Of a stretch of 54,584 nt of DNA, positions 4,753-21,022 are shown one piece after another. Numbering within the stretch: position 1 is the stretch's first letter; every line of letters starts with the position of its first letter. The notes beneath the pieces were generated by a model, which saw only the letters and a list, made by a program, of their open reading frames with translations, had not been told where the DNA came from and did not search any database. The position numbers and the translations under genes were made by a program. This DNA comes from Minisyncoccota bacterium. Its GTDB lineage: Bacteria > Patescibacteriota > Minisyncoccia > Phycocordibacterales > JABMNX01. Location of the stretch: NCBI GenBank assembly GCA_040876885.1, contig JBBDOU010000005.1, positions 38,620 through 93,203 on the forward strand. Direction: 5' to 3'.

Positions 4753-6120
4753 ATGACTATAGCAAGCAAACAAGAATCCCTCGTTCTTCTTATTGGAGAC
4801 ATTTCCCTTTTTTTAGTAGCCCTCTGGGTGACTTTGTTTGTGCGATACGTAGAGGTTCCTAGTACCACACTCCTCTATAACCACCTTATTCCATTTTCGT
4901 TTCTTTTTATTGTGTGGATTGGGGTGTTCTTTATCTCAGGGTTATATGATAAGCACACAATATTACTACGGAGTCGTCTTTCTTCAACGATTTTAAATGC
5001 CCAGGCGGTGAATATTGTGCTTGCAGCGCTTTTCTTTTTCTTTGCTCCTTGGTTTTCTATTGCCCCTAAAACAAATCTTGTCCTGTATTTAATTATCTCA
5101 TCTCTCCTTGTCCTCGTGTGGCGTACGTCAATTTTTCCGCGAACGGGCTTTAGAAAGAAACAGAAAGCAGTCCTTATTGGATATCGTGGTGAGGTAGGGG
5201 AGTTGGTACGCGAGGTAAATGTAAATCCCCGGTATAATCTTGAGTTTACGCTTGTCGTTGAGGTTGATGAGGGCATTGCTGTGGAAGCAGTTAAGGAAGA
5301 AGTAGTGGCGGTTATAAATTCAGGAGGCGCGTGGGTTATCGTTGCAGACGTTAAGAGCCGGAAGATACAAGGCTTACTCACTGCGCTGTATAATCTTACG
5401 TTGTCCGAAGTACCAATTGCTTTTCTTGATATACACAAAGTATACGAAGACATCTTCGACAGGATTCCCATATCAGCGCTAAAAGAAAACTGGATACTCG
5501 AGAATATTTCAACAAGCCCAAAGATTATATACGACACGATAAAACGCCTTGCAGACGTGGTAGGAGGAATAGTGCTTGGGGTTGTTTCGCTTATTTTCTA
5601 CCCGTTCGTGTACGTAGCTATTAAAATTGAAGACGGCGGAAGTGTGTTTATTAGTCAAAGACGTGTTGGAAAAAATAACAAGTTGTTTTATTCGTATAAG
5701 TTTAGGAGCATGAATAGAAACGAGGATGGTGTATGGGTGGGGGAGACCGATAATAAGATAACTCGAGTTGGTAGCTTTATGCGCAAAACACGTATTGATG
5801 AGTTGCCACAGTTGTGGAATATCGTCCGAGGAGACCTTTCTTTTGTGGGTCCACGACCTGACATGTCAGGGCTTAACAAAAGGCTTTCTGAAGAAATTGA
5901 ACATTACGACGTACGCAGTGTGATAAAACCGGGACTGACGGGGTGGGCACAAATTAAACAAGATTATGGAAATAAGAACCAAATAAGCCCGCAAGGAGTT
6001 ATAGATACACAAGAGCGACTTACGTATGATGTATACTATGTAAAAAATAGATCATTGTTACTTGATATACGAATTACATTTCGTACGATAAAGACAGTGC
6101 TCTCAAAGTTTGGAAGTTAA
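4753..6120 (+). CDS. Polyprenyl-phosphate sugar-phosphate transferase (WbaP/EpsB-like bacterial sugar transferase), priming enzyme
   Basis: N-terminal TM bundle plus a C-terminal catalytic domain with RVGKNNKLFYSYKFRSM, DELPQLWNIVRGDLSFVGPRP and KPGLTGWAQ. Confidence 0.85.
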   Translation: MTIASKQESLVLLIGDISLFLVALWVTLFVRYVEVPSTTLLYNHLIPFSFLFIVWIGVFFISGLYDKHTILLRSRLSSTILNAQAVNIVLAALFFFFAPWFSIAPKTNLVLYLIISSLLVLVWRTSIFPRTGFRKKQKAVLIGYRGEVGELVREVNVNPRYNLEFTLVVEVDEGIAVEAVKEEVVAVINSGGAWVIVADVKSRKIQGLLTALYNLTLSEVPIAFLDIHKVYEDIFDRIPISALKENWILENISTSPKIIYDTIKRLADVVGGIVLGVVSLIFYPFVYVAIKIEDGGSVFISQRRVGKNNKLFYSYKFRSMNRNEDGVWVGETDNKITRVGSFMRKTRIDELPQLWNIVRGDLSFVGPRPDMSGLNKRLSEEIEHYDVRSVIKPGLTGWAQIKQDYGNKNQISPQGVIDTQERLTYDVYYVKNRSLLLDIRITFRTIKTVLSKFGS

Positions 6121-6125
6121 TATAT

Positions 6126-7190
6126 ATGAACAAAAAAACACTTTTTATAACAGGAGGCGCGGGGTATGTTGGCGCGATGCTCTGCGAGCAGTTTTTACAG
6201 CGCGATGATGTCGAGAAAATTATTGCACTTGATAAAGAACCGCAACCAGAAATTCTCAAAGGAGATGCACGTCTTATTTGGATTGATGCGCATACGTGCG
6301 ACGACACATGGCAGGATGAGGTGGCACGACACAACCCTACCGTTGTGGTGCACACTGCATGGCAGATTCGTGAAATGTATGGAAAAAAGGAACTCCAGTG
6401 GAAGTGGAACGTGGAAGGGTCTGACATGGTTTTTGATTTTGCATTTTCAACTCCTTCAGTTGAGCGGTTAATTTATTTTTCAACAGTCTCTTCTTATGGT
6501 GCATCGAAGCATAATACCTTTGCGCATTTGTTTAAAGAAGAAGAACCTTTTGTTGAGGACCAGTACCGTTATGGCGTTGAGAAAAAAGAAGTAGAGGAAC
6601 ATCTGCGTGAGAAATTTGAACACAATAAAGAACGTGCACCTCAAATCTTTATCGTGCGTCCCGCAGCGATTACTGGCCCACGGGGTAGGTTTATGCGTAT
6701 TCGATTTGGACTCCAAGCGGCACTTTCAGGACAACTTACAAAGTCACCAATACATCGACTTATTTCACTTTTGGTTTCATTTGTTCCCGCAACGAAAGGA
6801 TGGGCACGGCAGTTTATTCATGAAGACGATGTTGCAGATATCGTGACACTTTTTGCATTCAATGACCTTGAAGGGAAGTACGAAGTCTTTAATATATGCC
6901 CCCCAGGGGACGCTGTGTATTCAAAGGACATGGCACGTGCTGTAGGGAAGAGAGTACTTCCCGTGTATCCGTGGATGGTGCGTCTCGCTTTCTTTTTCTT
7001 TTGGCATGCGACCCGTGGGCGCGTACCAACTTCATTTGGTGGGTGGAAATTTTATTCATACCCAATTCTTGTAGACGGAAGTCGATTGACCAAGCAATAT
7101 GGCTTTACCTACCGATGTGGTTCGCAAGATGCGTTTACCTCAACCAAAGGACGCTACGAGCAATACGTTCCAGAGGAATCACGGCAATGA
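6126..7190 (+). CDS. NAD-dependent epimerase/dehydratase (SDR family)
   Basis: N-terminal Rossmann motif TLFITGGAGYVGAML. Extended SDR length with a YxxxK-like YRYGVEKK. Confidence 0.75.
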   Translation: MNKKTLFITGGAGYVGAMLCEQFLQRDDVEKIIALDKEPQPEILKGDARLIWIDAHTCDDTWQDEVARHNPTVVVHTAWQIREMYGKKELQWKWNVEGSDMVFDFAFSTPSVERLIYFSTVSSYGASKHNTFAHLFKEEEPFVEDQYRYGVEKKEVEEHLREKFEHNKERAPQIFIVRPAAITGPRGRFMRIRFGLQAALSGQLTKSPIHRLISLLVSFVPATKGWARQFIHEDDVADIVTLFAFNDLEGKYEVFNICPPGDAVYSKDMARAVGKRVLPVYPWMVRLAFFFFWHATRGRVPTSFGGWKFYSYPILVDGSRLTKQYGFTYRCGSQDAFTSTKGRYEQYVPEESRQ

Positions 7191-8581: not shown

Positions 8582-9481
8582 ATGTTAGTTATCACATACA
8601 GAAAAATATTTTACGCACTCACGGTAATCTTGGTTGTTGCTTCGGTTTTCTCTATTGGTCTCTTTGGATTGAATTTCGGTGTTGATTTTACTGGAGGTTC
8701 GTTACTTGAGATTTCTTACACAGGAGATGTTCCTCAAAAAGAAGTACTTGAGCGGCGCATTGAGAGTTTGGCCATAGGAGGGTTTTCATTACGGAGTATC
8801 GGAGAGGGTGGATTTATTTTACGAACACAAGAACTAACTGATGAGGCTCGTCTCAATGTACTTTCTGCACTTTCATTAAATGGTGAATTTGAGGTCGCTC
8901 AGGAGCGCATCACCACAATCGGACCAGTTATTGGAAATGAGTTAAAGAACAAAGCGCTGACCGCTATTATTGTGGTGATTATCGCCATTATTCTTTTCAT
9001 AGCGTTTGTCTTTAGAAAAGTATCAGAGCCCGTATCATCATGGAAGTACGGACTCATTGCAGTTCTTGCACTACTTCACGATGTGCTTATTCCTATTGGA
9101 GTTTTTGCGGTCCTCGGGCATCTCTTTGGTTCAGAGATAAACGTACTTTTTGTTATGGCACTTTTGGCGATTCTCGGGTACTCAGTAAACGATACGATTG
9201 TTGTGTTTGACCGTGTACGAGAGAATCTTCGAATCAATAAAGAGTTACATAGAAAAGAAGATTTCGATCTTACGGTCGGGAAGAGCCTTTCTCAGACGTA
9301 TACTCGTTCTATTAATACGTCGCTTACCACGGTGCTGGTACTTTTCGCACTCTTTTTCTTTGGCGCAACAGCAACACAGGATTTCGCGCTTACACTCTTG
9401 GTGGGAGTTATCGCAGGAACCTATTCCTCAATTTTCCTTGCCACACCGCTTTTGGTTACATGGGGAGGGGTGAAGAAGTAA
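8582..9481 (+). CDS. secF: Protein translocase subunit SecF
   Basis: Trimmed from ORF 8546..9481 to the first ATG after the secD stop. Motifs GVDFTGGSLLEI and GYSVNDTIVVFDRVREN. Confidence 0.9.
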   Translation: MLVITYRKIFYALTVILVVASVFSIGLFGLNFGVDFTGGSLLEISYTGDVPQKEVLERRIESLAIGGFSLRSIGEGGFILRTQELTDEARLNVLSALSLNGEFEVAQERITTIGPVIGNELKNKALTAIIVVIIAIILFIAFVFRKVSEPVSSWKYGLIAVLALLHDVLIPIGVFAVLGHLFGSEINVLFVMALLAILGYSVNDTIVVFDRVRENLRINKELHRKEDFDLTVGKSLSQTYTRSINTSLTTVLVLFALFFFGATATQDFALTLLVGVIAGTYSSIFLATPLLVTWGGVKK

Positions 9482-9510
9482 AAATAAAAATCTAAAAAAT
9501 TGTATATAAA

Positions 9511-9556
9511 AACACCCCCGAGACATTCCTGTCTCGGGGGGTAGTGTTTTTTTTTA
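9511..9556 (+). terminator. Rho-independent terminator after secF
   Basis: CCCCCGAGAC (9515-9524) pairs with GTCTCGGGGG (9531-9540), followed by a T9 run. Confidence 0.85.
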
Positions 9557-9627
9557 AAGGAGATACTTTAGTTTAGTTCGGTGTGCTAGCATAAAGCACT
9601 TCGTGCTTTATGCTACACCGTGCTACC

Positions 9628-9650
9628 TTTTGGCGGTCCGACCGCCAAAA
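9628..9650. repeat. REP-like palindrome, family 1 (TTTGGCGG-TCCGA-CCGCCAAA), copy 1
   Basis: TTTTGGCGG TCCGA CCGCCAAAA. Same core as copies at 20271, 20510 and 20807. Preceded by an unrelated 13-bp-stem hairpin at 9583-9618. Confidence 0.85.
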
Positions 9651-10031: not shown

Positions 10032-10062
10032 TTAGGATGTGTCGTAAGGCACGTTAATATTT

Positions 10063-11512
<1,450 letters not shown>

Positions 11513-11647
11513 AATTGGAAATGTTATTTCGCACCCCGTGAAATAACTGAATTGGTCGGATTTATATGCCTCGTACGAGCATATAAACAAGCAATAGTGT
11601 TGAATCTTCTCTCTACACTCGCGCACCAGGATATCGCGTACTTGGAT

Positions 11648-11677
11648 GATGAACGAAACAAAAGAAAGCATACTATC
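11648..11677 (+). other. 16S trailer half of the processing stem
   Basis: GATGAACGAAACAAAAGAAAGCATACTATC pairs with 10002-10031. The 135-nt trailer between the 16S 3' end and this stem holds hairpins at about 11511-11556 and 11560-11590. Confidence 0.7.
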
Positions 11678-11689
11678 TATATATATTAG

Positions 11690-11728
11690 AAAACAAACAC
11701 GCCAGGCAACTGGCGTGTTTGTTGTTTT
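11690..11728 (+). terminator. Rho-independent terminator of the stand-alone 16S unit
   Basis: AACAAACACGCCAG-GCAA-CTGGCGTGTTTGTT, a 14-bp stem followed by GTTTT. Confidence 0.85.
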
Positions 11729-11810
11729 AAGTTTGGAAAGGAGGGTATTGACTTTTATATATAAAAATGTTATCATTAACATAGTATTAAATCAGCCTGG
11801 GAGGAAGATT

Positions 11811-12038
11811 ATGCGAGTGTGTAACCCGATTGAGCGTCTCGCTCTTCAGGATGCGAAGCGCGAGAGAAACCTGAAGGTATTGAAACTGTTGGTTTCTCTG
11901 CCTGTTATCTACGTTGGGCTTTGCTTGTTCATAAGTCTGCTTGTGCTCGTGAGCGCGGCGCTCGGAGCGCCTTCTTTAGGGGAATACGTTCCCTACATTC
12001 ACTGGCCTTTGAAGCTCCTCGTTCCATTCCTTTTGTAA
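11811..12038 (+). CDS. Small hypothetical membrane protein (75 aa)
   Basis: Trimmed from ORF 11646..12038, whose 5' part overlaps the rRNA processing stem and terminator. ATG 11811 follows GGGAGGAAG. Hydrophobic core LLVSLPVIYVGLCLFISLLVLV. Followed by a strong terminator. Confidence 0.45.
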   Translation: MRVCNPIERLALQDAKRERNLKVLKLLVSLPVIYVGLCLFISLLVLVSAALGAPSLGEYVPYIHWPLKLLVPFLL

Positions 12039-12054
12039 CACATCTCCGCCACAC

Positions 12055-12086
12055 CCGGCCCTGCAATTACGCAGGGCCGGTTTTTA
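12055..12086 (+). terminator. Rho-independent terminator
   Basis: CCGGCCCTGC-AATTAC-GCAGGGCCGG followed by TTTTTATTTT. Confidence 0.8.
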
Positions 12087-12116
12087 TTTTCACACAAAAA
12101 CATATTAAAAACATAA

Positions 12117-12146
12117 GCGCGGGGAGTTTTACTCCCCGCGCGTTTT
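12117..12146. terminator. Bidirectional terminator-like hairpin
   Basis: GCGCGGGGAG-TTTTA-CTCCCCGCGC with GTTTT downstream on the + strand. The - strand also has a T-rich tract (complement of AAAAACATAA). Confidence 0.6.
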
Positions 12147-12155
12147 CATTTCCTT

Positions 12156-12296
12156 CTAATCGCTACTTTTTTTATTTTTCTTTTTGGGTGTTTTGCAACA
12201 CACCCGTACAAATTCCTTGACATCTTGGCCTGGTGGCGGTTTTCGCACTCCAGTTGCACGACGCCTCCTTTGAGTATTTCTATTCCTTTTTCCCAT
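12156..12296 (-). CDS. Candidate small basic protein (46 aa), below the ORF-track cutoff
   Basis: Minus-strand ATG (12296) preceded by AGAAAGGA. Product MGKRNRNTQRRRRATGVRKPPPGQDVKEFVRVCCKTPKKKNKKSSD. Stop lies just before the 12117-12146 hairpin. No homology recognised. Confidence 0.25.
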   Translation of the reverse strand: MGKRNRNTQRRRRATGVRKPPPGQDVKEFVRVCCKTPKKKNKKSSD

Positions 12297-12750
12297 AAGT
12301 CCTTTCTCTCCCTTCAGGTTAGTTCCGTGGGCTCATTTGAGATAAAGCCAGTTGCTCAGGTACTCTGGATTCCGTTTGTTTGGTGACTACTCAGTCCTTC
12401 TCTCGTTCTCTCTTTTTCCGCCTCCTCTGGTTTCTTTCTGATGTTTCTGGCTTACCCCGGTGTTTTTTAGTTGTGGGTTTTCGTCCACCGCTATGTACCC
12501 GGGAAGGGCCTTTGTCTTGAGGTGCTCCATTTTGAGCGTAGCCGTTACACACGCAAACCTCCTAGTCTTTTTTTTAGAACGTAACTAATTTAGATGGTAT
12601 CAGGTATAAAATAAATACTCAAGCATTGAGGTTTTAAGCTAATTCTGGTACTATTTTGCGTACTCAGCCCCTCAAGAATCTTTGATTGATAATGTACAGC
12701 GACTTTGTTTTCTTACGAGCTGGCGAGTTAGTAAACAGGAAGTACTCTTG

Positions 12751-12813
12751 GTGGTGGTAGATCAGATGGTTAGAGCGGAGAAATAGTGTCTAAACACTAT
12801 TTCTCCTGATAAT
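12751..12813 (+). pseudogene. tRNA-Ile-derived fragment F1: diverged 5' half plus hairpin cassette plus anticodon-loop remnant
   Basis: GTGGTGG-TA-GATC-AGATGGTTA-GAGC-G resembles the 5' half of the intact gene. The 5' anticodon-stem strand CGTCA is replaced by a 28-nt hairpin (12778-12805), followed by CTGATAAT. There is no 3' half. Confidence 0.7.
12778..12805 (+). repeat. 28-nt hairpin cassette, copy 1
   Basis: GAGAAATAGTG-TCTAAA-CACTATTTCTC, a perfect 11-bp stem. Same context (TAGAGCG_CTGATAAT) as copy 2 at 12995-13022. Confidence 0.85.
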
Positions 12814-12828
12814 CTTTCTGAGCTGTGT

Positions 12829-12847
12829 GCGGGTGTAGCTCAGGTGG
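12829..12847 (+). pseudogene. tRNA-Ile fragment F2: exact 5' 19 nt of the intact gene
   Basis: GCGGGTGTAGCTCAGGTGG is identical to 12881-12899. It is preceded by CTTTCTGAGCTGTG (12814-12827), which is complementary (one G-T) to the trailer CACAGTTCAGAAAG found after F3 and F5. Confidence 0.8.
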
Positions 12848-12880
12848 GTTCGTTTGCAAAAGAATATTGCTTGGCATTGT

Positions 12881-12954
12881 GCGGGTGTAGCTCAGGTGGT
12901 TAGAGCGCGTCACTGATAATGACGAGGTCGTAGGTTCGAGTCCTACCATCCGCA
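12881..12954 (+). tRNA. tRNA-Ile (anticodon GAT), intact, CCA not encoded
   Basis: GCGGGTG-TA-GCTC-AGGTGGTTA-GAGC-G-CGTCA-CTGATAA-TGACG-AGGTC-GTAGG-TTCGAGT-CCTAC-CATCCGC-A. All four stems pair, with one G-T in the acceptor. Confidence 0.9.
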
Positions 12955-12987
12955 CAATGCTCGTCAATCAAATTCTTTTGTAAGCGA

Positions 12988-13066
12988 TAGAGCGGAGAAA
13001 CAGTGTTTAAACACTGTCTCTCCTGATAATGACGAGGTCGTAGGTTCGAGTCCTACCATCCGCACA
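12988..13066 (+). pseudogene. tRNA-Ile fragment F3: D-stem 3' strand plus hairpin cassette plus complete 3' part from the anticodon loop
   Basis: TAGAGCG, then the hairpin (12995-13022), then CTGATAATGACGAGGTCGTAGGTTCGAGTCCTACCATCCGCACA, which is identical to the intact gene from the anticodon loop onward. Lacks the acceptor 5' strand and CGTCA. Confidence 0.8.
12995..13022 (+). repeat. 28-nt hairpin cassette, copy 2
   Basis: GAGAAACAGTG-TTTAAA-CACTGTCTCTC. Relative to copy 1, a T:A pair becomes C:G (both strands changed). Confidence 0.85.
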
Positions 13067-13078
13067 CAGTTCAGAAAG

Positions 13079-13117
13079 AAATGATGAGGTCCCAAGTTCG
13101 AGTCTTGGCATCCGCAC
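13079..13117 (+). pseudogene. tRNA 3' fragment F4 with an alternative T stem
   Basis: AAATGATGAGGTC-CCAAG-TTCGAGT-CTTGG-CATCCGCAC. Same loop and acceptor strand as tRNA-Ile, but the T stem GTAGG/CCTAC is replaced by CCAAG/CTTGG with pairing preserved. Confidence 0.7.
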
Positions 13118-13134
13118 TTTGGAAAGTACCTAAT

Positions 13135-13161
13135 GTAGGTTCGAGTCCTACCATCCGCACA
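13135..13161 (+). pseudogene. tRNA-Ile fragment F5: T arm plus acceptor 3' strand
   Basis: GTAGGTTCGAGTCCTACCATCCGCACA. With the trailer CAGTTCAGAAAGAA it forms a 41-bp perfect direct repeat of 13040-13080. Confidence 0.8.
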
Positions 13162-13183
13162 CAGTTCAGAAAGAATAGACGTC

Positions 13184-13240
13184 AAAAATCCAAGGACCGT
13201 CCTTGGATTTTTACTTTTTTATCCACGGACGGTCCTTGGA
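13184..13240. repeat. REP-like palindrome family 2 doublet A (CCAAGGAC-N-GTCCTTGG); the first hairpin doubles as a terminator
   Basis: AAAAATCCAAGGA-CCG-TCCTTGGATTTTT (13184-13212), then TCCACGGAC-G-GTCCTTGGA (13222-13240). Same two-hairpin layout as 15652-15707. Confidence 0.8.
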
Positions 13241-13251
13241 CAACAAATAAC

Positions 13252-13281
13252 TTGCATTATGGGTGGTATTGGTTGTATACT
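13252..13281 (+). promoter_or_regulatory. Sigma70-like promoter candidate for the fur-ZIP-yibE/F cassette
   Basis: TTGCAT (13252-13257), 18 nt, TATACT (13276-13281). The same CTTGCATTAT...TATACT design occurs at 42971-42999. Confidence 0.45.
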
Positions 13282-13286
13282 ATCTT

Positions 13287-13303
13287 ATGCAAATAACTTG
13301 CAT
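13287..13303. promoter_or_regulatory. Candidate Fur-family operator (inverted repeat)
   Basis: ATGCAA-ATAAC-TTGCAT lies between the -10 element and the fur ATG. A half-site-containing copy AAATAACTTGCAT occurs at 13246-13258. Confidence 0.35.
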
Positions 13304-15651: not shown

Positions 15652-15707
15652 AAAAAATCCAAGGGTGGTCCTTGGATTTTTGCTTTTGCCCAAGGACCGT
15701 CCTTGGA
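15652..15707. repeat. REP-like palindrome family 2 doublet B
   Basis: AAAAATCCAAGG-GTGGT-CCTTGGATTTTT (15652-15681), then CCAAGGAC-C-GTCCTTGG (15690-15706). Direct repeat of doublet A. Confidence 0.8.
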
Positions 15708-15817
15708 CAATAAAGTGCCACCAACAGTCATCGTCACAGTAGAACCTGAAGACGGGGAAGCAAACCCCAACAAAAGAATAGCCTTTTCTTCTTATGAAAG
15801 TGCTGTATCATGGCACT

Positions 15818-18377: not shown

Positions 18378-18455
18378 ATTTTTCATATATTTTTCTACAA
18401 AGTGTTGTGTATGTGTATTTTACTGGGTCTACGCATGCGGTATACTTATAAGCAT

Positions 18456-20273
18456 ATGAATCTTGAGAAAATAACATACCTCGCTGCCACAGACTCTCGT
18501 GGTAAAGAAAAAGCATTTGGTATAAAAGCCATAGACAGAGCGAAGCATATGTATATCATCGGTAAAACTGGTATGGGGAAGTCAGTGCTTCTTGAGAATA
18601 TGGCGATTCAAGATATTCAAAATGGAGAAGGGCTTGCGTTCATTGATCCCCACGGCTCTACTGCAGAAAAGCTTCTTGACTATGTGCCAGAGCACCGCAT
18701 GGAAGATGTTGTGTACTTTGCTCCTTTTGATATGGACAACCCTGTTGCGTTTAATGTAATGGAAGATGTTGGGTACGACAAACGCCACCTTGTTGTGTCC
18801 GGCTTGATGAGCGCCTTTAAAAAAATATGGGTTGATGCGTGGAGTGCCCGTATGGAATATATCTTAACCAACACGTTGCTGGCGCTCCTTGAGTACCCTG
18901 ACGCGACATTGCTTGATATAAACCAGATGTTTATTAACAAAGCGTTTCGAAAAAAAGTTGTTGAGTATGTAACTGACCCTATTGTAAAATCGTTTTGGAA
19001 TGAGGAGTTTGCGGGATATTCAGACAGGTATGCACAAGAGGCAACCCCAGCTATTCAAAACAAGGTGGGGCAATTTACCTCGAACCCACTTATTCGAAAC
19101 ATTGTTGGACAGGCGCAATCAACATTTGATATGCGTGACATTATGGATAAGAAGAAAATCTTTATTGCAAACTTATCGAAGGGTCAAATGGGAGAAACAA
19201 ACGCAGACTTAATCGGAAGTATGCTTACCACAAAGATCTATCTTTCGGCGATGAGTCGTGCTGATGAGCAAGCGGTGGTCCAAGCGAAACTTCCTCCATT
19301 TTATTTCTATGTAGACGAATTCCAATCTATCGCAAATGACTCATTTGCCGATATTCTTTCTGAAGCTCGAAAATATAAACTCGCCCTTGTCATTGCGCAT
19401 CAATTTATCGCACAAATGGAGGACAATGTTCGTGATGCGGTGTTTGGAAACGCGGGAACCATTATTGCATTTAGGGTCGGTCCTTTTGATGCAGAGGTTC
19501 TTGAGACAGTGTTTCAGCCAAAGTTCCTTGCAGAAGACATTGTTAATCTTGGGAAGTACCAGACATATATGACGCTGATGATAGACGGTGCGGGCTCGAC
19601 CCCGTTCTCTGCGTCAACACTGCCTCCTATAGAAGAGCCAACTATCAGTTTCAAGGAGCAGATACTTCGTATATCAAAGGAGACGTATGGTCGCCCTCGA
19701 GAACAGATAGAGGAGGCTTTAAGGAAACGAAATGAAGCGCTTTCTCCTCAGCAGGCACAGCCTAAAAAACAAGAATATGCACAAGGAAACAAGGGCGGTA
19801 GTAGTGGCTTGACCAAGAGTTTTTCTCAAAGCCAAACTAAAGACTGTACACAGCCCTTGGGGAGCAAGAAAGATACAGGAACAGTAGCCCCCGCTGAAAA
19901 AAAACACGGAAACCCATCGAAAGATGTTCAGAATCAGAACAATAATTCAAGTAACGTTGTTCGCAAAGAAAAGCAAACAGTCTCGCTTAATACGTTGAAG
20001 TTTAAACAGCAGGCAACCAGTAAAGGGCCATCTGCTGCTCAATTATCTGCACTTCGGGACGCATTGAAGTCTGTGCAAAAAAATACGACACCTCCAGCGT
20101 CACAGAAAAAAAATAAGTCAGATGATATTGGAATAAAAAAAGAAAAACATTCAGAAAATGTTCCTCAAAGAGAAGGAACATCACAAGGGGCTTCAGGAGA
20201 AGAGAAAAAACCTCACCAAGAAAAAGAGGTTCCTCGTGAGGTGCTTGAAAATATCCTCAAAAAAGATGAGTAA
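18456..20273 (+). CDS. P-loop NTPase of the TraG/TraD/VirD4 (type IV coupling protein-like) group, with a ~170-aa low-complexity K/Q/S-rich tail
   Basis: Trimmed from ORF 18402..20273. Walker A GKTGMGKS. Walker B-like FYFYVDEFQS. ARKYKLALVIAHQFIAQM. Tail ...QQAQPKKQEYAQGNKGGSSG...KKNKSDDIGIKKEKH. Confidence 0.55.
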   Translation: MNLEKITYLAATDSRGKEKAFGIKAIDRAKHMYIIGKTGMGKSVLLENMAIQDIQNGEGLAFIDPHGSTAEKLLDYVPEHRMEDVVYFAPFDMDNPVAFNVMEDVGYDKRHLVVSGLMSAFKKIWVDAWSARMEYILTNTLLALLEYPDATLLDINQMFINKAFRKKVVEYVTDPIVKSFWNEEFAGYSDRYAQEATPAIQNKVGQFTSNPLIRNIVGQAQSTFDMRDIMDKKKIFIANLSKGQMGETNADLIGSMLTTKIYLSAMSRADEQAVVQAKLPPFYFYVDEFQSIANDSFADILSEARKYKLALVIAHQFIAQMEDNVRDAVFGNAGTIIAFRVGPFDAEVLETVFQPKFLAEDIVNLGKYQTYMTLMIDGAGSTPFSASTLPPIEEPTISFKEQILRISKETYGRPREQIEEALRKRNEALSPQQAQPKKQEYAQGNKGGSSGLTKSFSQSQTKDCTQPLGSKKDTGTVAPAEKKHGNPSKDVQNQNNNSSNVVRKEKQTVSLNTLKFKQQATSKGPSAAQLSALRDALKSVQKNTTPPASQKKNKSDDIGIKKEKHSENVPQREGTSQGASGEEKKPHQEKEVPREVLENILKKDE

Positions 20274-20315
20274 CTTAACCACTTTGGCGGTCCGACCGCC
20301 AAAGTGGTTAAGTTA
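20271..20315. repeat. REP-like palindrome family 1, copy 2 (45-nt perfect hairpin)
   Basis: TAACTTAACCACTTTGGCGG-TCCGA-CCGCCAAAGTGGTTAAGTTA, a 20-bp perfect stem. The left arm starts with the TAA stop of the ATPase gene. It ends 15 bp before the RAYT start. Confidence 0.9.
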
Positions 20316-20329
20316 TAAGTTATCTATAT

Positions 20330-21022
20330 ATGAGAAAAGTCCCTTTTGTTAACAATGAGTACTATCATATTTTTAACCGCGGTGTAGATAAGCGGACGGT
20401 TTTTGAAGATAAGTTTGATATAGAACGGTTTTTTGAAAGTATGAAAATTTTCAATCGTGTTAAACCAGTTGGTAGTATCCTTGAATATTCAGTCAAGCGC
20501 AGAAAAGATGGTAATTTTGGCGGTCGGACCGCCAAAATTACCACAAAAACCGAGGAGCGGTTAGTCGACTTTGTTAGTTACTGCCTAAATCCAAACCATT
20601 TTCACTTTATTCTTAGGCAAAGAAGCGATGGTGGCATTAGTGAGTTTATGAAACGATTAGGTGGTGGCTATACATGGTATTTTAATAATAAACATAGCAG
20701 AAATGGTGCGTTGTTTCAGGGAAAATTTAAATCTGTCCATATCAACTCAAATGAGTACTTACTCCACTTAAGTGCATATGTGAACCTTAATAATCGTGTA
20801 CATAACTTTGGCGGTCCGACCGCCAAAATAATTAGATCTAGCTGGGATGAGTATATAGGAGTAGATAATAAAGAGAGTAAAAAAGTCTACTGCGATAAGG
20901 ATATTATTTTAGGACAATTTAAAAATAAAAAAGAATATAAAAAATTTGCAGAAAATTCCTTAAGAGACATATTAAAAAACAAAGAAAAAGCCGAAGAGCT
21001 TGAGATTTTATTACTTGAATAA
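20330..21022 (+). CDS. REP-associated tyrosine transposase (RAYT) / IS200-like Y1 HUH transposase
   Basis: YYHIFNRG first strand. HUH motif NHFHFIL. GALFQGKFKSVHINSNEYLLHLSAYVNLNN with the catalytic-Tyr helix. ..SSWDEY. Flanked and penetrated by family-1 palindromes. Confidence 0.75.
   Translation: MRKVPFVNNEYYHIFNRGVDKRTVFEDKFDIERFFESMKIFNRVKPVGSILEYSVKRRKDGNFGGRTAKITTKTEERLVDFVSYCLNPNHFHFILRQRSDGGISEFMKRLGGGYTWYFNNKHSRNGALFQGKFKSVHINSNEYLLHLSAYVNLNNRVHNFGGPTAKIIRSSWDEYIGVDNKESKKVYCDKDIILGQFKNKKEYKKFAENSLRDILKNKEKAEELEILLLE
20510..20542. repeat. REP-like palindrome family 1, copy 3 (inside the RAYT CDS, centre inverted)
   Basis: GGTAATTTTGGCGG-TCGGA-CCGCCAAAATTACC, a 14-bp perfect stem. 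Translated in frame as GNFGGRTAKIT. Confidence 0.9.
20807..20827. repeat. REP-like palindrome family 1, copy 4 (inside the RAYT CDS)
   Basis: TTTGGCGG-TCCGA-CCGCCAAA, translated in frame as NFGGPTAKI. Confidence 0.9.

Follow-up and report, generated by a model that had tools for sequence, protein, structure and literature searches.

A tRNA-Ile gene nested among tRNA-Ile-derived pieces in Paceibacteria looks like a conserved RNA architecture

Bacterial tRNA genes are usually regarded as simple units, and disrupted, nested or permuted tRNA genes are viewed as an archaeal and algal speciality that needs a splicing endonuclease. What is to be made, then, of a bacterial tRNA-Ile(GAT) gene lying in a nest of pieces of further tRNA-Ile copies? 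The locus belongs to a window of 54,584 nt (the whole stretch of DNA analysed, abbreviated W), and L-numbers (L009, L037, etc.) designate loci from related genomes. A preliminary description had read the nest as the footprint of repeated site-specific integration, excision or recombination at tRNA-Ile, with the caveat that the pieces might have a functional role. As far as the sequences tell, the nest looks like a conserved RNA architecture and not like the scar of a lost mobile element. The caveat appears to be a better lead than the integration scar, the pairing being kept by compensatory changes.

Anatomy of the nest

Exactly one tRNA is found at the nest (ARAGORN; Rfam RF00005), an Ile(GAT) at 12881-12954/5 with 72.7 bits, as first described. 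It is surrounded by five pieces, F1 to F5 (Table 1), whose derivation from tRNA-Ile was confirmed together with their repeats and coordinates. F2 comprises tRNA positions 1-19 and stops at the GG of the D loop, and F3 runs from TAGAGCG through a hairpin H' (12994-13023) and CTGATAAT to the 3' end. The final 44 nt of F3 are identical to the intact gene (44/44), and F3 reaches only 17.3 bits against the tRNA model. F2 and F3 do make up, as proposed, a tRNA whose break is in the D loop, and the intact gene lies within that break. The complementary 14-bp leader and trailer also hold: CTTTCTGAGCTGTG pairs with CACAGTTCAGAAAG at 14/14 positions, one of them being G·T (G·U in RNA). F1 consists of an acceptor 5' strand, a D arm, a hairpin H (12777-12806) and CTGATAAT. 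F4 begins in the anticodon loop, after the CTGATAAT-equivalent AAT, and its T stem (CCAAG/CTTGG) differs from that of the intact gene and is fully paired. A perfect 41-bp direct repeat (13040-13080 = 13135-13175) flanks F4.

Table 1. Features of the nest, in window coordinates
Feature	Position	Strand	Remarks
Putative extended -10 promoter TGGTACTAT of the whole nest	12646..12654	+	predicted
F1: diverged 5' two-thirds of a tRNA-Ile copy	12751..12813	+	direct repeats D2, D4; inverted repeat I8
Layer-1 leader CTTTCTGAGCTGTG (12814-12827) plus T at -1	12814..12828	+	inverted repeats I2, I3; pairs with 13064-13078
F2: 5' piece of the layer-1 shell	12829..12847	+	repeat D3; 19/19 identical to the 5' end of the intact gene
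X1: 5' strand of the long helix carrying the intact tRNA	12848..12880	+	inverted repeats I5, I9
Intact tRNA-Ile(GAT)	12881..12954	+	ARAGORN, Rfam RF00005; the one tRNA of the nest that looks functional
X2: 3' strand of the long helix	12955..12987	+	inner trailer at 12955-12968, then arm at 12972-12987
F3: 3' piece of the layer-1 shell	12988..13064	+	repeats D1, D2; inverted repeat I6
Layer-1 trailer CACAGTTCAGAAAG	13065..13078	+	complement of leader CTTTCTGAGCTGTG; second copy at 13160-13173
F4 (13080-13116) plus trailer CTTTGGAAAGTACCTAAT	13080..13134	+	3' part of a second tRNA-Ile copy
F5 (13135-13159: T arm, acceptor 3' strand) plus second layer-1 trailer	13135..13175	+	right copy of the 41-bp repeat
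Intrinsic terminator	13184..13212	+	13-bp stem then T run, directly after F5

Several features come in addition to those of the preliminary description, which had missed the terminator. A 30-nt hairpin, present in both F1 and F3, replaces the 5' strand of the anticodon stem. The intact gene has a leader/trailer helix of its own, made of GCATTG/CAATGC plus TCGTTTGCAAAAGAAT/ATTCTTTTGTAAGCGA. X1 is composed of an arm (12850-12865) and an inner leader (12866-12880), and its duplex with 12954-12998 (-34.1 kcal/mol, z = -6.2) is contiguous with the acceptor stem. At the D-stem junction, 8 nt on the 5' side and 2 nt on the 3' side are unpaired before the long helix starts.

The elements of the nest are not there by chance, because the counts of the hairpin pattern (0 matches expected in shuffled sequence) and of GGTTCGAGTCC (5 matches observed vs 0.43 expected) exceed those of the shuffles, and because the 471-nt RNA fold, in which the nesting is reproduced, has an energy of -194.7 kcal/mol with z = -12.3. 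Within the 54-kb window, the hairpin and trailer motifs are confined to the nest. A tRNA-Ala-like element between the 23S and 5S genes of the window has the same leader/trailer-duplex design.

The nest lies just downstream of a 16S gene, its other neighbours in the window being Fur and ZIP. The putative promoter box TGGTACTAT is orthologous to TGGTAATAT in L037 and to TGCTACTAT in L025, both located just 5' of the first tRNA-derived piece, and in L010, L011, L022, L024 and L030 boxes resembling TGnTAnnnT precede the outermost piece by 8-20 nt. A strict sigma-70 scan makes no call at TGGTACTAT. Terminators also follow the last piece in L011, L018, L019, L020, L024 and L038.

Such a repetitive locus might be a plain tRNA-Ile gene misassembled via short repeats, and short-read Logan contigs indeed break within the 41-bp repeat. 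Against this stand several independent assemblies. The nest of GCA_040904045.1 is identical, the same 2.2 kb having been assembled in two separate MAGs, and GCA_040881575.1 shows 1 mismatch in 2200 nt against the nest region. Similar nests were assembled in many independent contigs of relatives, including a chromosome-level genome. Moreover, repeat collapse cannot yield an F1 diverged from F3, two leader/trailer pairs and the distinct T stem of F4. The probability of the artefact envisaged at the outset is considered negligible. A Logan contig of the same strain (L001) links the left context of F3 to the right context of F5, as if without the 95-nt F4 block. Recombination among the repeats, which formed another part of the first interpretation, is evidently ongoing, as witnessed by this contig and by the perfect 41-bp repeat.

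Recurrence and conservation in related genomes

The layered grammar of the nest is common to many Paceibacteria (CPR), without mobile-element cargo. About 25 loci of Patescibacteria/Paceibacteria share it: an intact tRNA-Ile is followed 17-230 nt downstream by a unit composed of TAGAGCG, a hairpin, CTGATAAT and a tRNA 3' end. Searching metagenomes for TAGAGCGGAG...CTCCTGATAAT yielded 8 true loci, and a genome scan for TAGAGCG-N19-45-CTGATAATGACGAGGT yielded 14, all from Patescibacteria, with a chromosome-level assembly among them. These loci were chosen by flanking tRNA motifs, pairing not being a criterion, and in every scanned locus the unit is co-oriented with the intact tRNA-Ile(GAT) and lies 17-230 nt downstream of it. 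A matching 5' piece is often found upstream, so that the working tRNA sits on a leader/trailer helix of about 30 bp issuing from the D loop of the interrupted copy, or shell. The same break point (CAGGTGG, then TAGAGCG) is observed in L009, L011, L019, L024, L030 and L038.

Another sample was not chosen on the nest, its basis being the SecDF-16S-tRNA-Ile synteny. Downstream synteny is useless for finding orthologous nests, because Fur and ZIP are not kept beside tRNA-Ile in relatives. Nested or tandem hairpin-bearing copies are present in L025, L037 and L038/L039 of this sample; the tRNA-Ile of L038 has a different sequence, and the L038 shell matches L038's own tRNA. The nest is missing in the syntenic L040, L041 and L042 (16S identity to the window 88, 86 and 84%, respectively). 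It is thus dispensable, accessory and patchily distributed, some relatives making do with a plain tRNA-Ile gene. This patchy distribution also fits a selfish or drifting element.

Several shells show signs of decay. That of L009 has a T stem/T arm chimeric between two alleles, and those of L010 and L027 have mismatched T stems. The third unit of L037 is truncated, and X2 of L037 has no partner strand. In the window, the 5' strand and leader of layer 0 (F1 and F4) now pair poorly. The L024 shell contains a separate structured insert of 85-215 nt, duplicated at two positions, for which RNAalifold analysis of related loci gave only a noisy consensus. ARAGORN calls the L030 shell a tRNA-Gly(CCC), a call that was rejected on account of its poor cloverleaf.

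Comparison with L037 and L025 gives a measure of the constraint. Between W and L037, 16S identity is 92% and coding DNA is 67-73% identical, and nest blocks reach 84-96%; for the spacer 11676-12879, no match is obtained at E<=1e-5. F1 and the first unit of L037 (5639-5694) share 82% identity over 56 nt. X2, taken together with the adjoining tRNA end and the beginning of the hairpin, matches L037 5824-5918 at 86-90% identity, in the midst of unalignable spacer. F4 with its trailer and onward (W 13080-13161) corresponds to L037 5765-5846 with 89% identity, the tRNA part being identical. This L037 segment, colinear with F4, belongs to the tRNA-Ile that is intact in L037, of which it covers the 3' part together with the trailer, and a T-arm/acceptor fragment follows the trailer at the place equivalent to F5. 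In L025, whose 16S is 90% identical, F4 plus trailer matches at 95% over 42 nt. Conversely, of the copy found intact in W, L037 keeps nothing but remnants, namely X2, the hairpin and a piece with the GTAGG allele, and the T-stem allele of the W working copy differs from that of the resident copy kept in L037 and L025. By this measure, nest blocks are rRNA-like in conservation, including stretches not derived from tRNA, between genomes whose synonymous sites are saturated, and nest pieces are conserved far above the neutral level.

RNA-level constraint and the mobile-element question

All 28 hairpin units fold (28/28). In an alignment trimmed by hand to the outer 8 bp, which contains 20 distinct sequences, 94.4% of the cells are paired and 7/8 pairs have changed on both sides; the covariation score is 0.709, compared with 0.185 in shuffles (0/500 reach it) and <=0.18 with partners slid. 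The hairpin pairs are nearly pure Watson-Crick (1 G·U vs 4 A·C in 281) and lack a strand-specific signature, and the hairpin alone may for this reason be a DNA-level palindrome. The leader/trailer helices around the inner tRNA have z values of -4.8 to -9.1 (W, L009, L011, L019, L024 and L030). They are unalignable between loci, and every one ends at the shell D loop. Their 282 pairs include 29 G·U pairs vs 2 A·C mismatches, an asymmetry which suggests that the tRNA strand, i.e., the plus-strand RNA, is under selection. The two paralogous 14-bp leader/trailer helices of the window (layer 1 and intact gene) show 4 compensatory pair differences. On the evidence of these pairings, the hairpin and helices are maintained via compensatory change.

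Known RNA families do not account for these structures. In Rfam 15, searched in E-value mode at E<=10 for the window region and at E<=0.1 for 8 related loci, RF00005 on the intact tRNA is the sole match, with none for shells, hairpin or inserts; weak matches to the L20 leader, miRNAs and the like were dismissed as terminator-like hairpins. The group I intron covariance model gives no match in the window region or in the 8 related loci. A reading of the hairpin loop as an anticodon loop was rejected, loops being of 3-4 nt in most units, and so was a hammerhead-like reading of CUGAUAA, which has no G8.

One could nevertheless consider the nest as neutral debris, that is, decaying tandem or nested tRNA-Ile duplicates refreshed by gene conversion from the working copy, with hairpins and helices devoid of any role. 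The tRNA-matching parts of the shells are often 100% identical to the tRNA of the same locus, as conversion would make them, compared with only about 50% identity for leader and trailer; signs of decay are plain in several shells, L040-L042 live without a nest, and a strain variant may lack the F4 block. However, the hairpin, X1/X2 and the trailers are absent from the tRNA and so cannot be maintained by conversion, yet they covary or are conserved. The G·U vs A·C asymmetry in the long helices is a signature of RNA selection, and neutral spacer is unalignable in genomes so small and diverged. The preliminary description had foreseen that relatives might carry the same fragments as neutral decaying duplicates with no associated element: no element is found anywhere, but neutral decay does not describe the behaviour of the fragments. 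Debris is considered an improbable explanation.

The first interpretation, repeated site-specific integration and excision at tRNA-Ile, would make the 3' fragments displaced attR-type copies left after deletion of the island body. Williams is said to have described in 2002 two classical crossover sublocations of tRNA-targeting tyrosine integrases, the anticodon loop and the T stem. Direct repeats of the tRNA 3' part that start in the anticodon loop (F4) or at the T stem (F5) are present, exactly at these sublocations. The nest resembles the att sites of tyrosine-integrase islands and prophages in its partial tRNA 3' copies downstream and in direct repeats that extend into the trailer, like the perfect 41-bp repeat around F4. 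Different T-stem alleles within one locus (W, L020), the chimeric T arm of L009, as from a T-loop crossover, and the joint duplication of trailer and 3' part in L021 and L029 point in the same direction.

In contrast to att sites, the nest has no integrase or cargo at any locus. No cargo can lie between the pieces, because the distance from the intact gene to the next fragment never exceeds about 230 nt in about 25 loci, and the 25 Pfam families that recur most often in the 90 ORFs neighbouring 22 loci include neither integrase nor transposase. The search for attP-bearing elements gave no link either: four viral-contig scans (hairpin unit, trailer, tRNA 3' part, general unit) returned 0 matches, and BLAST of the whole nest against phages and plasmids returned generic tRNA matches only, at query positions 130-220. 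Integration also leaves unexplained the upstream 5' pieces, the D-loop nesting, the covarying hairpin and the compensatory G·U-rich helices. Furthermore, the pieces are orthologous across genera, between genomes of 90-92% 16S identity, and conserved far above neutral DNA. The integration footprint is not upheld, and it is now held to be very unlikely. A Y1_Tnp-like ORF (20330-21022) raised the idea of a REP/RAYT or IS200/IS605 end, which was rejected, the hairpin occurring only in the nest and the ORF lying 7 kb away.

A more unusual mobile element would be a selfish, non-autonomous tRNA-Ile cassette with inverted repeats, which enters a resident tRNA-Ile and replaces its function. Insertion would occur at the D loop or anticodon loop, repeated hits would build the doll-like layers, and the host could not lose the element. 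Inverted repeats do bound the inserted units (23-26 bp for 12810-13079; 16+6 bp for 12848-12987), the target is always another tRNA-Ile copy, with nested layers, and the distribution is patchy in relatives. The duplicated insert of L024 means that mobile-like insertions do happen in shells, and the W working copy carries a T-stem allele unlike that of the L037/L025 resident copy. On the other hand, the D-loop junctions, inspected in 8 loci, show no consistent target-site duplication, neither a transposase nor a homing endonuclease is linked, and the window contains no further copies. The flanking repeats are fully different between loci yet paired with G·U, which RNA selection fits better, and the hairpin present in every split copy is left unexplained. 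Such a cassette is regarded as quite improbable.

A multi-layer pre-tRNA locus and its known counterparts

On balance, the nest is probably a co-transcribed, multi-layer pre-tRNA-Ile locus that arose from local duplication and recombination. It would form one transcription unit, from the putative promoter near 12646 to the terminator at 13184, with a single working tRNA-Ile(GAT) enclosed by the remains of at least two further copies. Layer 1 (F2 + F3) would be a tRNA-Ile-derived shell that has kept the acceptor stem, D stem, T arm and D-loop GG. In this shell, the D loop would be opened after G19 by a helix of about 33 bp with the working tRNA at its tip, the anticodon-stem 5' strand swapped for the 13-bp hairpin, and the acceptor stem extended by the 14-bp leader/trailer helix. 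Layer 0 would be the leftover of another copy, of which F4 and its trailer match the version still intact and working in a related genome, and F5 would be a recent 41-bp duplicate.

Such layers may have arisen as the tRNA-derived repeats were duplicated locally, recombined (unequally or homologously) and converted one another, lineages differing in which copy stays in use. No unique order of duplications and deletions linking the W, L037 and L025 arrangements can be reconstructed. The primary transcript is predicted to fold as a Russian doll, from which RNase P and RNase Z, probably after RNase III has acted on the long helices, would free one mature tRNA. The shells might then be folding and processing scaffolds that prevent mispairing of the repeated halves. 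Alternatively, they might be a separate tRNA-like RNA that remains after processing.

This last view can be taken further, tentatively: the shell might represent a new class of bacterial RNA gene, tRNA-Ile-derived, anticodon-less and in two pieces, with a real tRNA-Ile as its D-loop "intron", although this is thought rather unlikely. It would then survive processing by RNases P, Z and III as a stable tRNA-shaped molecule, the extra helices occupying the permissive D-loop and variable-loop positions, and would serve the cell in its own right, perhaps as a decoy or by partnering a factor that binds the tRNA elbow. The bacterial Y RNA YrlA, the tRNA-like domain of tmRNA and mascRNA come to mind, since the shell likewise keeps an acceptor stem, a D stem with GG and a T arm. 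It has no anticodon loop, and its extra helices are placed at the variable pocket of the D loop and in the variable region, as tRNA tolerates. Unlike these RNAs, the shell has no Rfam match and no linked rsr or smpB context, and it is derived from, co-evolves with and encloses a neighbouring tRNA-Ile.

The multi-layer pre-tRNA locus can also be set against disrupted tRNA genes of archaea and algae, such as the split tRNAs of Nanoarchaeum, the tri-split tRNAs of Caldivirga, the multi-intron tRNAs of Thermoproteales and the permuted tRNAs of Cyanidioschyzon. Breaks at non-canonical places (D loop, variable/T region), long complementary flanks that keep the halves joined and intron-like inserts that seem to move between positions are common to both. 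In the archaeal and algal systems, the splicing endonuclease cuts at bulge-helix-bulge motifs and ligation then restores a functional tRNA. The nest differs in being bacterial, in that the insert is itself a complete tRNA, and in that no bulge-helix-bulge motif (3-nt bulge, 4-bp helix, 3-nt bulge) is visible by eye at the window junctions. F2 and F3 freed of their inserts do not form a full cloverleaf, the anticodon-stem 5' strand CGTCA being replaced by the hairpin. The interrupted copy cannot become a decoding tRNA, because one strand of its anticodon stem is missing.

The processing stems of rRNA operons, and the intervening sequences that RNase III cuts, offer another parallel, a mature RNA being there too at the tip of a long duplex whose sequence drifts and whose pairing is kept. 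In the nest, however, the stem rises from the D loop of another tRNA-like fold, and RNase III cleavage is only presumed. Group I introns of the anticodon loop, as in Azoarcus tRNA-Ile and cyanobacterial tRNA-Leu, are likewise insertions that a bacterial tRNA gene tolerates via processing. The inserts of the nest differ from them by their positions (D loop, anticodon stem), by a size too small and by consisting of a tRNA with its flanks. No description of such an arrangement was found in the literature on CPR tRNA introns, nested or pseudo-tRNAs, intervening sequences, tRNA-like RNAs and processing stems.

There are practical consequences: tRNA finders miss the nest structure and report one gene only, short-read assemblers break at it, and tRNA fragments beside tRNA genes should not automatically be taken for island scars. 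A lineage of CPR/Paceibacteria appears to keep a complete tRNA inside another tRNA-shaped RNA, namely in its D loop, and compensatory changes preserve the pairing across genera. If the shells are scaffolds for which duplication first created the need, the locus would be a clear natural example of constructive neutral evolution affecting one essential gene, and also an instance of sister lineages that have each held on to another copy of a nested duplicate. As unprecedented as a new class of bacterial RNA gene would be, if true, a tRNA cassette that perpetuates itself by nesting into the resident tRNA-Ile gene and taking over its function. If the shells are functional, they would represent a new RNA architecture, and possibly a new class of tRNA-like RNA, in organisms whose RNA biology is almost unexplored.

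Architecture of the nest and its neighbourhood

The layout set out in the preliminary description agrees with the sequence, and its observation of an intact tRNA-Ile among five derived fragments (F1 to F5) was confirmed with ARAGORN, Rfam and a repeat finder. The single tRNA of the nest is Ile(GAT), found by ARAGORN and Rfam. The repeat finder gave a 44-nt identity between F3 and this gene and a 19-nt identity between F2 and the gene; it also recovered F5, the diverged F1, the leader/trailer complement (with one G·T) and the perfect 41-bp direct repeat. The F4 T stem, CCAAG/CTTGG, differs from that of the gene and is still paired. Chance expectation accounts for none of the repeats and complements of the nest. 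Missing from that description were a 30-nt hairpin in each of F1 and F3, an extended leader/trailer helix belonging to the intact gene itself (GCATTG/CAATGC plus a 16-bp arm), and a terminator directly 3' of F5.

From outside to inside, the pieces are ordered like a Russian doll: F1 [ leader - F2 [ X1 - tRNA - X2 ] F3 - trailer ] F4 - trailer0 - F5. X1 and X2 are the two strands of the long helix carrying the intact tRNA, trailer0 is the F4 trailer, F2 and F3 form the shell (layer 1), a tRNA broken in its D loop, and F1 and F4 form layer 0. Minimum-energy folding of the 471-nt RNA gives the same nesting (-194.7 kcal/mol, z = -12.3).

Features of the window, with their positions
Feature	Position	Remark
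rRNA genes	1-929, 10056-12954	unlinked
tRNA-Ala-like element	587-715	between 23S and 5S genes; context 548-797
16S 3' end	11465-11515	GGAUCAAUUCCAAU
Spacer	11676-12879	no match in the related locus L037
Pyrimidine-rich stretch	12150-12560	3' of two terminators; no ORF of at least 60 aa
Hairpin in F1, 30 nt	12777-12806	exactly at site of anticodon-stem 5' strand
Intact tRNA-Ile(GAT)	12881-12954	72.7 bits
Hairpin in F3, 30 nt	12994-13023	exactly at site of anticodon-stem 5' strand
F4, its trailer, start of F5	13080-13161	colinear with L037
Terminator-like double hairpin	13184-13247	AAAAATCCAAGGACCGTCCTTGGATTTTT ... ATCCACGGACGGTCCTTGGA
Its recurrence	~15653-15714	after YibE_F gene; 83% over 64 nt
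Exact 14-nt direct repeat	13244-13257, 13290-13303	CAAATAACTTGCAT
TrwB/TraG and LTD/PKD region	18402-21022	

The surroundings of the nest have features of their own. A 9-kb stretch of protein genes (glycosyltransferases, SecDF) separates the block made up of the 23S end, the tRNA-Ala-like element and 5S from 16S; tRNA-Ile lies 1.3 kb beyond 16S, with no 23S after it, and the SecDF-16S-tRNA-Ile order is conserved in relatives. The tRNA-Ala-like element, overlooked by ARAGORN and scoring 39.7 bits in Rfam, has a G3:U70 pair, an encoded CCA end and ~56 extra nt replacing the normal anticodon arm. Its 11-bp leader/trailer extension lies within a further 20-bp helix (TGAACATTCAGTGATGGG / CCCATCACTGAATGTTTA), a tRNA-on-a-processing-stem design shared with the tRNA-Ile nest. 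As its sequence indicates, the 16S 3' end has no CCUCC anti-Shine-Dalgarno, an absence kept in every relative checked (L025, L037, L038, L040-L042). Gene starts in the window have no GGAGG upstream, and in many of them a box resembling TATAAT precedes the ATG by 7-10 nt, which suggests that translation initiation in this clade is SD-independent, possibly leaderless. The pyrimidine-rich stretch is unalignable with the corresponding L037 spacer. The double hairpin looks like a small intergenic repeat. The two copies of the 14-nt repeat lie close to either side of the start of the Fur-family gene preceding a ZIP metal transporter, the first outside the gene and the second within it, and this repeat could be an operator of a Zur/Fur-type repressor.

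Evidence for constraint on the RNA structure

The hairpin folds in 28 of 28 units (TAGAGCG, hairpin, linker, tRNA 3' end). An alignment was made of the eight outer base pairs in 20 different hairpins, from loci picked by flanking motifs and not by pairing; 94.4% of cells are paired, and both-side changes occur in seven of the eight pairs. The covariation score is 0.709 versus 0.185 in shuffles (0/500 reach the observed value), slid partners giving at most 0.18. The hairpin is nearly all Watson-Crick (1 G·U and 4 A·C in 281 pairs) and, taken alone, could also be a DNA-level palindrome.

The long helices around the inner tRNA (z = -4.8 to -9.1) are an unbroken continuation of the acceptor stem, and their sequences are wholly different from locus to locus. 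Their 282 pairs include 29 G·U versus only 2 A·C mismatches, an excess that marks selection acting on the tRNA-sense RNA. The layer-1 leader and trailer are paralogous to those of the intact gene and have diverged from them (8/14 and 7/14 positions identical), four of the pairs differing in a compensatory way. Between the window and L037, coding DNA is 67-73% identical versus 84-96% for nest blocks, among which are X2, the F4 trailer and the hairpins.

Recurrence, origin and mobile-element readings

Scanning metagenomes for the hairpin unit TAGAGCGGAG...CTCCTGATAAT gave nine loci, eight of them real, and a TAGAGCG-N19-45-CTGATAATGACGAGGT scan of species-representative genomes returned 15 (14 real). 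The genuine loci of the genome scan are all from Patescibacteria, one being in a 617-kb chromosome-level assembly. Every unit has an intact tRNA-Ile(GAT) 17-230 nt upstream, in the same orientation. The layout is nested in the window and in L009, L011, L012, L019, L024, L030 and L038: a 5' piece ending at the D-loop GG, one strand of a ~30-bp helix and the intact tRNA are followed by the complementary strand, TAGAGCG, the hairpin, CTGATAAT and the 3' end. A tandem layout without the upstream 5' piece occurs for example in L021, L022, L025, L027 and L029, and additional partial copies of the F1/F4/F5 kind in L010, L011, L017, L023/L018, L028 and L037. An extended -10 promoter-like box stands directly before the outermost piece, and a terminator directly after the last.

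The variable or T region of some shells (L008, L011, L012, L013, L017, L019, L024, L025) holds an 85-215-nt insert composed of a hairpin, GCAAGA, a long hairpin CCTTTTG..CAAAAGG, TGTACAG and a short hairpin CTCC-TGTAA-GGAG. It matches no Rfam family and is absent from the window. In L024, where two near-identical copies (5764-5967 and 6147-6350) occupy different positions of one shell, it looks like a mobile structured element.

Relatives were also fetched through SecF homologues and the conserved SecDF-16S-tRNA-Ile order, a selection independent of the nest. The nest is present in L037, L025 and L038/L039 (16S identity to the window 92%, 90% and 85%), and a plain tRNA-Ile in L040, L041 and L042 (88%, 86% and 84%); the nested design is common yet dispensable. 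The tRNA-Ile of L038 differs in sequence and the L038 shell matches it, so shells evolve in concert with the resident gene. In L041, the alignment of 16S to the window is split at a GIY-YIG endonuclease ORF (9388-9642) lying inside the 16S region, a sign of a possible rRNA intron.

The MAG that contains the window belongs to the CPR/Paceibacteria; homologues of its ZIP and SecF proteins carry the names Parcubacteria, Kaiserbacteria or Paceibacterota. The 2.2 kb nest region recurs at 100% identity in GCA_040904045.1 and with one mismatch in GCA_040881575.1, and the nest is no assembly accident. Breaks in Logan short-read contigs fall in the repeats. The Logan contig L001, from the same strain (SRR27977662; 1-50 versus window 13037-13180), joins the left context of F3 straight to the right context of F5, the left flank of the first 41-bp copy meeting the right flank of the second; a contig of SRR27977661 ends at the branch instead. 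Assembly-graph logic suggests a strain variant or population polymorphism without the 95-nt F4 block.

The segment from F4 to the start of F5 is colinear with the 3' part of the intact L037 tRNA-Ile, its trailer and a T-arm fragment, with 89% identity overall and an identical tRNA part; that L037 gene has a perfect 16-bp leader/trailer helix. Conversely, L037 5824-5918 can be aligned with the 3' end of the inner tRNA, with X2 and with the beginning of the hairpin; L037 has only a fragment there and lacks X1. F1 is 82% identical to the first unit of L037, and F4 with its trailer 95% identical to L025. Several copies were therefore present in the common ancestor, different ones being used in each lineage, and the window fragments appear to be unused copies. 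Gene conversion and unequal or homologous recombination among the 17-44-nt repeats, together with local duplication, would suffice to generate them; no single order of events emerged from the comparison.

The nest had first been read as an integration/excision scar. This interpretation is largely replaced, since the loci have no recurrent integrase or transposase nearby, no locus contains cargo and no link to a phage or plasmid was found. Viral contigs gave no matches, and phages and plasmids generic tRNA matches only; the D-loop junctions show no target-site duplications, and the nest motifs are confined to the nest within the 54-kb window. Integrase att scars share with it only the 3' partial copies. 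A selfish tRNA cassette could still be proposed from the inverted repeats that end the nested units and from their patchy distribution, but it leaves both the ubiquitous hairpin and the RNA-type helices unexplained. Elsewhere in the window, an ORF weakly matching a Y1 (IS200/IS605-type) transposase and a gene for an LTD/PKD surface protein come after a TrwB/TraG (VirD4-like) coupling-protein gene; L037 has the TrwB-LTD pair in synteny, and this region is thus probably no recent island.

Proposed processing and comparison with known systems

The whole unit would be one transcript folding into nested tRNA-like modules, whose acceptor/T-arm parts would be recognised by RNase P and RNase Z. The long duplexes would probably be opened by RNase III, as in rRNA processing stems, and one mature tRNA-Ile would be released, to which CCA must be added since it is not encoded. 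The shell keeps a tRNA core and is enlarged after G19, in the D-loop pocket; in relatives the variable region is enlarged as well. Known tRNA structures tolerate extra nucleotides at both positions, and the shell may thus retain the L-shape.

The nest resembles archaeal split, permuted and multi-intron tRNA genes in topology, but it has no bulge-helix-bulge motif, and its pieces cannot be made into a decoding tRNA. It resembles rRNA processing stems in its drifting leader/trailer duplex, and tRNA-like ncRNAs (YrlA, the tRNA-like domain of tmRNA) in its anticodon-less tRNA core. No Rfam family matches the architecture, and no description of such an arrangement was found in the literature searched. 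The nest is best read as an accessory, conserved pre-tRNA-Ile locus of Paceibacteria, built in several layers and constrained at the RNA level, in which the shells may be either clamps against mispairing of the repeated halves or a tRNA-like RNA with a role of its own.
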